Shown here in pieces: positions 13,835 to 17,479 of a DNA stretch of 64,000 nucleotides. Made by a program: the position numbers and the translations under genes. The first letter of the stretch is position 1; each line of letters opens with the position of its first letter. The DNA is from Bacillota bacterium. GTDB lineage: Bacteria > Bacillota > DTU025 > MWDF01. The stretch lies in contig JAKQNF010000002.1 in the NCBI GenBank assembly GCA_029565935.1, forward strand, positions 67,065 through 131,064, in the 5' to 3' direction. The notes under the pieces are model-generated. The model did no database searches. It was given only the letters and a program-made list of their open reading frames with translations, and was not told the DNA's origin.

Positions 13835-16800
13835 ATGGGGTGGTCATCCTTGCATTATCGCTTGATGCCCTCGGACGGGCATATGGATTTGAAGAAGTTC
13901 CTAGAATCGATAACGGACACGCCAGCCTCGAAAGAGCTGGCTTTTTGTCGTATAAGGGAAATCCTGGTGGGTTTTAAGGACGGCGGCTGGACCGTTCGCA
14001 TGGAAGGTCCGGCAGAGCACATGGAGGAAGCTGTGCTCTGCGTGGGCCGGGCACTTGCGGAACGTGCCGCCGACATCAGGGCAGAGATCAGCTACCTTCC
14101 GTACGAGAAGGACATGTGGATCAAGAAGGCATGGTCCTCGCTGGCTGCAAGGGTATCGTGTACTAGCGGCGTCAACCTCGGAGCGTTGCTGTCATGCGAA
14201 CCTTCTTGGGATGGTCCGGTTGGGCTGACGGTACCTAGCGAAGCCCAGTTGATGTCATTCGAAAAGCGCGAAGTGCCCGAGGCTATATCGGACATTGTAA
14301 ACGCGAAGACGGGCGTCAGCGTCGAAGTAAAGCTGTCCTGCGCGGCCGTGAGGAGCACCGACTACTCCGATTCTCTGCCAGAAGAGCCCGAGCAGGAGGA
14401 ACAATCATCCAGTACGGACGAGGACGTATCCGGCATCCATGTCTACGGCAGTCCTATAAAGATAGCGTCGGTCGATATCTCGGGCATCGTGGACCAGTCG
14501 GATTATGTAGCCGTCGAAGGCGAAGCCATGAACCAGGCGGTGTTTTCGTCAAAATGGGACAAGGCCGTGCTGTCATTCATAGTGGCGGATCCGACCGGAG
14601 CGATCTACTGCAGCATAAGCGCAGATAGCGAGGACGACCTCCCCACAGTGGAAGGCCGTGTCAAGGTCGCTGGCAGCGTGGTCATGGATGACAGGAAGGG
14701 TACGCAGGACGCCGAACCTCTGATGCTCGTGGAGGACGTCGAGGCCTGCGAGAACCGCGCGCCTGACGTCCTGAGACCATGCCAAAGGGTCGAACTACAC
14801 TGCCATACGAAGATGAGCGCACTTGATTCCGTAAGTGATCCAGAGGACGTCGTAATGGCGGCAAAGCAGATGGGCCAGACCGCGGTGGCCATCACGGACC
14901 ACGGCGTGATCTATTCCTTCCCTCGCTTCTACCAGGCGGCCTCCAGGATGGGGATCAAGCCCGTCTTCGGTATGGAAGGATACCTGAAGGACGAAATATC
15001 CGAGGACACCTCGCATTTTACCGTGCTCGTGAAGGACAAGGAAGGTTTGGCCAACCTTTACAGGATGGTCTCAAAATCGCATCTGGAGTACTTTAAGCGG
15101 CACCCGCTCGTCCCGAGGAGCCTTGCGCTAGAGCTAAGACGGGGTCTTCTCTATGGTTCGGCGTGCGCAGGCGGTGAGCTTTTCCGGCTGGCATTGAGGG
15201 GGGCCGATGAGGCTGAGCTGATCGAAGCCATGCGATTCTACGATTATGTAGAGGTGATGCCCGCTGAGAACAGCTCATATCTCGTAAGGGAGGGTACACT
15301 TCCGGACTTGGACGCCATAAGGTCCCTTAACAAGAAGCTTGTGGAGGCCGCCAAGAAGGCGGGCAAGCCCTTCGTCGCCACCGGTGACGTCCACTACCTG
15401 AGGAAAGAGGATTCCACCCTTAGGAAAGTGCTCCTCGCAGGGCAGGATTATAAGGATTTCGACGAGCAGCCCCCTTTGCATATGAGGACGACCGAGGAGA
15501 TGCTGCGAGAGTTCGCATATCTCGGGAAGCAGGACGCGCTAAGGGCCGTCGTACTGGGTCCCAACATGATGGTCGACGGGATAGAAAGCCTGAAGCCCGT
15601 CCCTGATGGCCTTAGCACCCCGATCATAGAAGGCGCCGAGGAAGACGTTAGGGACATCTCCAGGTCCGAGGCAGAGCGCCTGTACGGCAGCCCCTTGCCG
15701 GAAGCAGTGGGGAAGCGCCTTGACAAGGAGCTTAGTTCGATCATAGGCAACGGCTTCGCCAGCATCTACCTAGTCGCAATGAAGCTGGTCAAGAAGTCGT
15801 TGTCGGACGGCTATCTCGTAGGCTCGAGAGGTTCCGTCGGATCTTCCCTGGTCGCTACGCTGCTGGGAATAACCGAGGTGAATCCGCTACCGCCGCATTA
15901 TAGATGCGGGCACTGCAAGACGTCGGACTTCGGCCCGTTCGCACAGAAGCACGGCTTCGACCTGCCAGATAGGGAGTGTCCTTCCTGCGGGAAGATGATG
16001 GGCAAAGAAGGACACGATATTCCGTTCGAGGTGTTCCTCGGCTTCGAGGGGGACAAGGTACCGGACATAGACCTCAACTTCTCCGGTGAGTACCAACCGA
16101 GGATACACAAATATACTGAGGAGATGTTCGGGGCCGACAATGTATTCAGGGCGGGGACTATAGGCACGATAGCGGAGAAGACCGCCTATGGCTTCGTAAG
16201 GGCCCTAGAGGAACGATCGGGCGCGAAGGTCGGCAGGGCGCAATCCGCGCGCCTCGCCATAGGCGCGACCGGCGTAAGGAGGACCACCGGTCAGCATCCC
16301 GGGGGGATCATCGTCCTTCCCGAGGGGCGGGACATACATGAGTTCACACCCGTCCAACATCCGGCGAACTCGAAGGAGAAGGGCATAATCACGACCCATT
16401 TCGAGTACACCGCGCTCCATGACAATCTTTTGAAGCTTGACCTTCTCGGGCATGACGACCCGACCATGATAAGGATGCTGGAGGAGATAACAGGAGAATC
16501 TTTCAGGCAAGTACCGTTCGACGACGCCGCGACGATGTCCATTTTCTCAGGGATAGACGCGCTCGGCATCGACGCCAGGAAGTACGGGCAGGAAGTGGGG
16601 ACCATCGGCATACCCGAGTTCGGCACCAGGTTCGTGCGAGGCATGCTGTCCGAGACCAGGCCATCCACTTTCGACGAGCTCGTCAGGATATCCGGCCTTT
16701 CCCACGGCACCAACGTATGGTTGGACAATGCGCGGGATGTCATCAGGAGCGGAGACGGCGGCCTCAAGGACGTGATATCCGTAAGGGACGACATCATGAA

Positions 16801-17479
16801 CTTCCTCATATCCAAAGGCATGCCTCCGAAGAGCGCCTTCCAGATAATGGAGCGGGTTAGGAAGGGCAAGGGCCTGTCTCAAGCGGACGAGGCCGCGATG
16901 TCGGGCCTGGCCCTGCCCGACTGGTACGTCGATTCCTGCAACAAGATCAAGTACATGTTCCCGAAGGCTCATGCATGCGCATACGTCATGATGGCCTTCA
17001 GGATAGCCTACGCAAAGGTACACATGCCCGTTGCCTTCTATAGCGCGTACCTTACGATCAGGGCCCTCGATTTCGATCCCTCGTTCGCGTCCATGTCGGT
17101 GAGGGAAATGGACAAAGCCATCCGCGCCGTGGATTCCAACAAGGCCGCAACCCAGAAGGAGAAGGACGTCGTCCCTGTGCTCGAGGTGCTGAGGGAATCA
17201 CTACTTAGGGGCATAAGGATCAAGCAGGTGGACATCGCATCCTCCCATCCTACGAGATTCACTTCCGAGGTGGACGGCATAAGGGCGCCATTGTCATCAG
17301 TGCCCAGGTTGGGGGAGAAGGCCTCCTTGAAGATTGGCGAGGCAAGGTCGAAATCGCCGTTCAGCTCAATTGACGAGCTGAAGAGAAGAGCCGGCCTGAC
17401 GAAGGCGCACATATCGGCCCTCAGGGACGCCGGTGCCTTGTCCGGGCTTAAGGAAAGCGAACACCTGGAACTGTTCTGA
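13835..17479 (+). CDS. polC: DNA polymerase III PolC-type (Gram-positive replicative polymerase), apparently lacking the 3'-5' exonuclease insertion
   Basis: The N-domain comes first. An OB fold follows. The PHP domain has [14 protein letters not shown].. The PolC-specific [39 protein letters not shown] zinc module comes next. The palm region is present. Position after proS and before rimP-nusA matches Bacillus. Length is 1214 aa, against about 1430 aa for canonical PolC. Confidence 0.85.
   Translation: [1214 protein letters not shown]

Follow-up and report, generated by a model that had tools for sequence, protein, structure and literature searches.

How does a replicative DNA polymerase proofread once its exonuclease domain is gone? 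The question is raised by polC, the gene for the PolC-type DNA polymerase III alpha subunit, in a 64,000-nucleotide stretch of DNA from a Bacillota bacterium (contig JAKQNF010000002.1, positions 67,065 to 131,064; hereafter the window). We find that the open reading frame (ORF) at 13835-17479 is a genuine, intact PolC-type replicative polymerase without a built-in exonuclease domain (hereafter exo-less). It has undergone a clean loss of the DnaQ-like insert that carries the 3'-5' exonuclease in canonical PolC, and a turn of nine residues now connects the PHP segments on either side.

13835 to 17479, plus strand: polC, exo-less PolC-type DNA polymerase III alpha, a single uninterrupted ORF of 1214 amino acids (aa)

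An initial annotation, made from the sequence alone, had called this protein a PolC-type polymerase. This assignment is borne out by both NCBIfam equivalog models for PolC, whose cut-offs the protein exceeds (NF001688, 1296.2 bits against 873; TIGR01405, 1217.4 bits against 1043.45), and by the position of the gene in the canonical polC slot. The equivalog match is in two pieces that leave the exonuclease section of the profile unaligned; the best piece pairs residues 391-1214 with profile positions 613-1444. The start codon is ambiguous within 13835-13885, where ATG 13835, TTG 13850, ATG 13865 and ATG 13883 are candidates and none of the four has a strong Shine-Dalgarno sequence; a public protein of 1209 aa (P0001), 100% identical to window PolC, fits the TTG at 13850.

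A Pfam scan at E≤1 gave no match to PF00929 (RNase_T/DnaQ) in the 1214-aa protein, and a custom hidden Markov model (HMM) built from 50 PolC exonuclease inserts matched neither window PolC nor any frame of the window. With both searches empty, a hidden or diverged exonuclease domain in this protein is ruled out, and the earlier claim that it has no DnaQ-like domain stands, there being no DEDDh match anywhere along the chain. To locate the junction, we aligned window PolC with its best 120 homologs from a search of 5.8 billion proteins and measured the segment from ‘GYL’ of PHP motif III (GxEGYL) to ‘HFTV’, the site of the next PHP histidine. Segment length is bimodal, at 16-58 aa in 71 sequences and 202-280 aa in 50, and 47/50 of the long-insert PolCs carry the DEDDh motifs (FDxETTG, for example FDIETTG; H-x4-D). 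In window PolC and its nine closest relatives the segment is 16 aa, the shortest of the sample, against ~217 aa in a typical PolC with the insert, which gives a deficit of ~200 aa, close to the ~220 aa of the initial annotation. That annotation also read the PHP sequence as uninterrupted; the conclusion holds, but the insertion point lies just beyond the stretch it quoted, downstream of GMEGYL (E381) and upstream of H394.

14984 to 15013, plus strand: junction replacing the ~200-aa DEDDh insert, linker K384-S393 (KDEISEDTS and flanks), placed by the alignments and the structure model

The nine residues KDEISEDTS bridge PHP motif III and the following PHP strand, and in an AlphaFold2 (AF2) model the junction forms a tight turn between PHP strands at model positions 361-371 and 378-385, with a predicted local distance difference test score (pLDDT) of 88-95. 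The nine relatives (P0001-P0009, 62-100% identity) have the identical junction. P0001 represents a cluster of 27 sequences, and the other eight, P0002-P0009 (62-84% identity), were drawn from different assemblies (ENA, NCBI, Logan). The P0004 locus (GCA_029567745.1; L081) and the window are collinear between rpsB and pnp, with a GT2 glycosyltransferase gene next to polC in both. Window PolC thus belongs to the PolC group by sequence, structure and locus yet lacks the exonuclease insert; it departs from the canonical DEDDh-in-PHP arrangement and represents a non-canonical PolC architecture. The domains and motifs along the chain are as follows.

13835 to 14434, plus strand: diverged PolC N-terminal domain (NTD), residues ~1-200, recognized by hhalign and as alpha/beta subdomains in the AF2 model

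14435 to 14749, plus strand: OB fold, residues ~201-305, N-terminal to PHP, recognized by hhalign, by alignment with the OB of PDB entry 3f2b from residue 217 and as a five-strand block in the model

14786 to 15523, plus strand: PHP domain, residues ~318-563 (Pfam PF02811 at residues 320-464, 2.4e-32)

15650 to 16876, plus strand: polymerase core with palm, thumb and fingers, residues 606-1014 (PF07733 DNA_pol3_alpha at 606-785; PF17657 finger at 876-1014)

15905 to 15988, plus strand: PolC-type zinc module, C691-x2-C694 ... C715-x2-C718, its four cysteines invariant among 40 exo-less PolCs

17210 to 17458, plus strand: tandem helix-hairpin-helix, (HhH)2, residues 1126-1208 (PF14579 HHH_6, 3.7e-13)

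17462 to 17476, plus strand: C-terminal putative beta-clamp-binding-type motif HLELF, from the position and pattern of the family motif

Although Pfam recognizes nothing in the first 319 residues, hhalign aligns them with the NTD and OB of other PolCs over 306 columns (99.7% probability, E 1e-25), which together with the AF2 model upholds the N-domain and OB fold of the initial annotation. By hhalign, the 3f2b alignment and the model, NTD and OB precede PHP, as in the PolC domain order; an acidic linker at residues ~172-198 is modelled with low confidence. The PHP domain retains its full set of nine metal ligands (H322, H324, D331, H356, E381, H394, C444, D518 and H520). This set, HHDHEHCDH, matches the ‘active’ signature HHDHEH[C/H]DH (PMC12926913), includes the HxH motif that had been picked out before and, on the conservation check suggested with it, proves invariant across 40 exo-less PolCs. 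The catalytic aspartates D744, D746 and D869 are likewise invariant in the alignment, these 40 included, and the 9-residue PolC-specific motif, the C-x2-C...C-x2-C zinc module and HCH are all present as claimed. In the putative clamp motif, which in the family at large reads Q[LIM]S[LMF]F, histidine replaces glutamine throughout the clade of window PolC. The AF2 model, which spans residues 15-1214 (pLDDT 87; predicted template-modelling score, pTM, 0.71), finds 3f2b as its top Foldseek match in the Protein Data Bank (PDB), with a target TM of 0.94 and a root-mean-square deviation of 2.8 Å over 1020 columns; 3f2b is also the best PDB match by sequence.

Loss of the insert has happened many times. 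We counted changes by parsimony on neighbour-joining (NJ) trees, a crude method, of 91 non-redundant PolCs (879 shared columns, 60 bootstrap replicates). On these trees, exo-less PolCs are interspersed with exo-containing ones, and the exo-less state requires 9-13 changes in 60/60 replicates, so that exonuclease loss appears to be frequent and independent; the clade of window PolC is monophyletic, again in 60/60. Three homologs (P0048, P0049 and P0062) retain a full-size insert of 208-218 aa in which all five DEDDh residues are substituted (QVEMR, SVELR, EVLDR). Judged by these substitutions, the three inserts appear to be degenerate pseudo-exonucleases, possibly caught as intermediates on the way to loss.

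What, then, could correct errors in such an enzyme? We regard cis-acting proofreading at the PHP metal centre, within a clamp-tethered exo-less replicase that works beside DnaE1, as the most likely mechanism, with a probability of about 0.6. The polymerase would still synthesize DNA as a clamp-tethered replicase, because D744/D746/D869, the zinc module, the HhH domain and the HLELF motif are all present. Its trinuclear PHP metal centre would excise mismatched 3' ends in cis, because the metal site retains every ligand, a state that it shares with the DnaE1 enzymes of Mycobacterium and Thermus that proofread through PHP; for M. tuberculosis DnaE1, PHP proofreading is established (PMC5636811). 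The complete metal site also lends support to PHP proofreading as a possibility, as the initial annotation had put it. Clostridial PolC would, from the literature, operate alongside a DnaE1 that has an intact PHP site of its own, and redundancy with this PHP-active DnaE1 may have made the DnaQ insert dispensable and led to its repeated loss. The full ‘active’ PHP motif is kept in 69/71 exo-less PolCs, and a C669Y change in C. thermocellum PolC, at the PHP cysteine ligand corresponding to C444 in window PolC, gives a ~30-fold mutator (bioRxiv 10.1101/2021.07.30.454558). Taken further, window PolC may be a natural ‘PHP-only’ proofreading replicase, and the clostridial DnaQ insert a dispensable element lost at least nine times via degenerate pseudo-exonuclease intermediates, a proposal that we offer tentatively and at somewhat less than even odds. 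If it is true, the PHP centre, and not the DEDDh domain, would be the primary PolC proofreader in the PolC+DnaE1 system.

Several points weigh against proofreading by the PHP centre. First, clostridial PolCs that retain the exonuclease domain keep the PHP motif just as often (49/50). Stricter conservation in exo-less enzymes, as a signature of compensation, is therefore rejected, and conservation of PHP is no specific answer to loss of the insert. Second, we know of no exo-less PolC for which a PHP exonuclease activity has been measured. Third, the C. thermocellum mutator arose in an exo-containing PolC, and structural destabilization could be an alternative cause of its phenotype. Finally, our search for DnaE1 and for stand-alone DnaQ-like proteins covered the 64-kb window.

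Of the competing explanations, the one that survives best is still unlikely. Here, a separately encoded DnaQ/epsilon-like DEDDh exonuclease would bind exo-less PolC, much as epsilon binds to PHP in E. coli DnaE1, and proofread in trans. Stand-alone DnaQ homologs are common in bacteria, averaging more than three per proteome (PMC12926913), and the search for DnaQ in this genome covered the 64-kb window. Pfam scans, which covered essentially all window ORFs, and the custom HMM nevertheless found no RNase_T-domain or exo-like ORF in the window, and the same HMM detected no separately encoded exo-like ORF in the ±10 kb around polC at the 36 exo-less loci among 80 polC loci that we took from species-representative genomes (36 exo-less, 44 exo-containing). 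These empty flanks, and an upstream gene that encodes a GT2 enzyme and no nuclease, also rule out that the exonuclease domain now exists as a separate gene beside polC. Moreover, Timinskas et al. treat Clostridia as having no dedicated epsilon (PMC3919608), and an intact PHP site would make a trans-acting factor unnecessary.

Quite unlikely, in our estimate, is an arrangement in which DnaE1 with its active PHP domain serves as the main high-fidelity replicase, and exo-less PolC is a reduced or specialized enzyme that does no proofreading. Timinskas et al. raise this possibility, and report that some Clostridia have DnaE1 only and that exo-less PolCs are all clostridial (PMC3919608). At least nine losses and three degenerate inserts point to relaxed selection on PolC proofreading, and the clade of window PolC sits on a long branch. 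By contrast, strict conservation of the polymerase, PHP, zinc and clamp motifs in exo-less PolCs argues for a fully functional enzyme; the canonical polC locus is retained; and the window is strongly asymmetric in purines and in gene strand, as is typical where Firmicutes use PolC. Pfam scans found no dnaE in the window. There is virtually no chance that the missing domain is an artefact, because assembly deletion (the initial annotation had named a local assembly error that removed the insert as grounds for refutation), frameshift and pseudogene are ruled out by the uninterrupted ORF and by the common junction in nine independently assembled relatives, one of them the 27-member identical cluster, and because the AF2 model confidently shows a tight turn at the junction.

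The neighbouring genes place window PolC in the position that PolC normally occupies.

11451 to 13184, plus strand: proS, upstream neighbour and marker of the canonical polC locus

13190 to 13830, plus strand: GT2 glycosyltransferase gene, directly upstream of polC (PF00535, 3.8e-23)

17615 to 19195, plus strand: rimP and nusA, downstream neighbours and markers of the canonical polC locus

Exo-less and exo-containing polC occupy one slot, dxr-rseP-ispG-(proS)-(GT2)-polC-rimP-nusA-infB, which makes the gene in the window polC's positional orthologue. The idea that it is an additional, paralogous PolC, like the extra copy in Thermotogae (Timinskas et al.), is rejected as far as it can be tested, the canonical slot being occupied here as it is by exo-less polC in many lineages. 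The initial annotation had also described a glycosyltransferase gene inserted between proS and polC. This gene is real, with a probable start at ATG 13190 that yields 213 aa, as called in the relative L081, but its position is not peculiar. A GT2 gene of ~213 aa lies directly upstream of polC at L001, L003-L009, L015, L022, L023, L034, L045, L048-L050, L057, L062, L069, L070, L073, L076 and L081. The linkage is common to many clostridial genomes, with or without a PolC exonuclease domain. A tie between the GT2 gene and exonuclease loss is ruled out by exo-containing polC genes that also follow GT2 in Geosporobacter, Caloramator, Alkaliphilus, Thermobrachium and Fonticella. The arrangement is conserved synteny, with no local insertion, and is separate from the polymerase.

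The window as a whole is an ordinary chromosomal stretch with a gene order typical of Firmicutes. Its ORFs, by Pfam, run through xerC, hslVU, rpsB, tsf, pyrH, frr, uppS, cdsA, dxr, rseP, ispG, proS, GT2, polC, rimP, nusA, infB, rbfA, nrnA, truB, ribF, rpsO and pnp and on to lexA and a gene of the uracil-DNA glycosylase (UDG) superfamily, and nearly all genes from 714 to 57830 lie on the plus strand. The host is an uncultured lineage of Bacillota, probably of the Clostridia type; the nearest species-representative genomes by PolC are an ‘uncultured Firmicutes bacterium’ (66%) and an ‘uncultured Clostridia bacterium’ (74%, partial), and no 16S gene lies within the 64 kb.

Other features of the window stand apart from the polymerase. 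The truB region (24.7-25.6 kb) and the interval at 50.2-51.5 kb hold normal plus-strand ORFs. Acetate/butyrate-kinase-like genes at 29156 and 31183 flank a phosphotransacylase gene at 30249, a mildly unusual kinase duplication, and subunits of a 2-oxoacid:ferredoxin oxidoreductase follow downstream at 32479-34839. Small genes with N-terminal prepilin methylation motifs and a DUF7305 protein at 42734-45068 resemble an operon for a type IV pilus or for competence pseudopilins. Near the far end, lexA (57171-57830, plus strand) adjoins the divergent UDG-superfamily gene (58289-58945, minus strand), so that two DNA-repair-related genes lie near the exo-less replicase gene. Between 56000 and 64000, GC content falls from ~0.57 to 0.43-0.50, GC skew changes sign and gene orientation switches. 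tRNA-Pro(cgg) and tRNA-Leu(tag) at 59009-59175 are followed here by a DegT-type aminotransferase gene (59443-60573, plus strand), a 573-aa ORF with no Pfam match (61152-62873, minus strand) and a patatin-like lipase gene (63094-63978, minus strand); this segment may be a genomic island or a cell-envelope locus beside the tRNAs.

Comparison with known systems sets window PolC apart from two better-studied kinds of replicase. It shares family models, locus and core motifs with canonical PolC (B. subtilis/S. aureus type; PDB 9qpc), whereas the canonical enzyme carries the ~200-aa DEDDh insert and, in Bacilli, has DnaE3 as its partner and a PHP domain that is often ‘inactive’ (PMC12926913). With the PHP-proofreading DnaE1 enzymes of M. 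tuberculosis (PMC5636811) and Thermus (Stano et al. 2006), it has in common C-family membership, the lack of an in-chain DEDDh domain and a nine-residue PHP site. DnaE1, in contrast, is of the DnaE type, with a C-terminal OB and no zinc module, belongs to another clade and resembles window PolC at only ~20% identity and a TM of ~0.56. PHP exonuclease activity has been demonstrated in these DnaE1 enzymes, which we propose as a working analogy for window PolC on the basis of the ligand set.

A closer structural counterpart is the engineered Geobacillus kaustophilus PolC (3f2b/3f2c), of which 3f2b is a construct without the N-terminal and exonuclease domains (Fig. 1 legend, PMC3919608). The two proteins align end to end from window residue 217, and KDEISEDTS sits exactly at the artificial GSGSG linker that replaces the exonuclease domain in the construct. 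The close superposition on this deletion construct indicates that the PolC fold tolerates removal of the domain. In 3f2b the deletion is artificial and the NTD is gone too, whereas window PolC is a natural deletion that keeps its NTD; the eighth PHP ligand is asparagine in Geobacillus and D518 here. With its minimal 9-residue junction and its PHP site complete, this natural exonuclease deletion would lend itself well to biochemical tests of PHP proofreading in PolC.

The nearest parallels are the exo-less PolCs of Clostridia and Negativicutes reported by Timinskas et al. in 2014, and the initial annotation accordingly overstated the novelty of the architecture. In that survey, 6% of PolCs lack the insertion and, besides the one extra Thermotogae copy, are confined to these two groups, where PolC is paired with DnaE1; the survey reports a conserved PHP metal site in PolC and also discusses a possible role of DnaE1 as main replicase (PMC3919608). 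Window PolC has the same NTD-OB-PHP-Pol3-(HhH)2 order without the exonuclease domain, the same conserved PHP site and a Firmicutes background that is probably of the Clostridia type. It differs in coming from an uncultured lineage, whose nearest species-representative genome is at 66% identity, in its strongly diverged NTD, in the histidine that replaces glutamine in the clamp motif and in its junction, which at 16 aa is the shortest of our sample (17-58 aa in the other exo-less PolCs). It is thus a further example of a variant published in 2013-14. Because earlier publications had covered this variant, the taxa to which it is restricted and its likely meaning, the locus adds an example and no concept; new here are the at least nine independent losses in our homolog sample, the three degenerate inserts and the GT2 synteny. 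More broadly, exo-less PolCs are natural experiments on the need for a DnaQ-type domain versus the PHP metal centre, and window PolC could help to address the division of labour in the poorly understood clostridial PolC+DnaE1 replisome.

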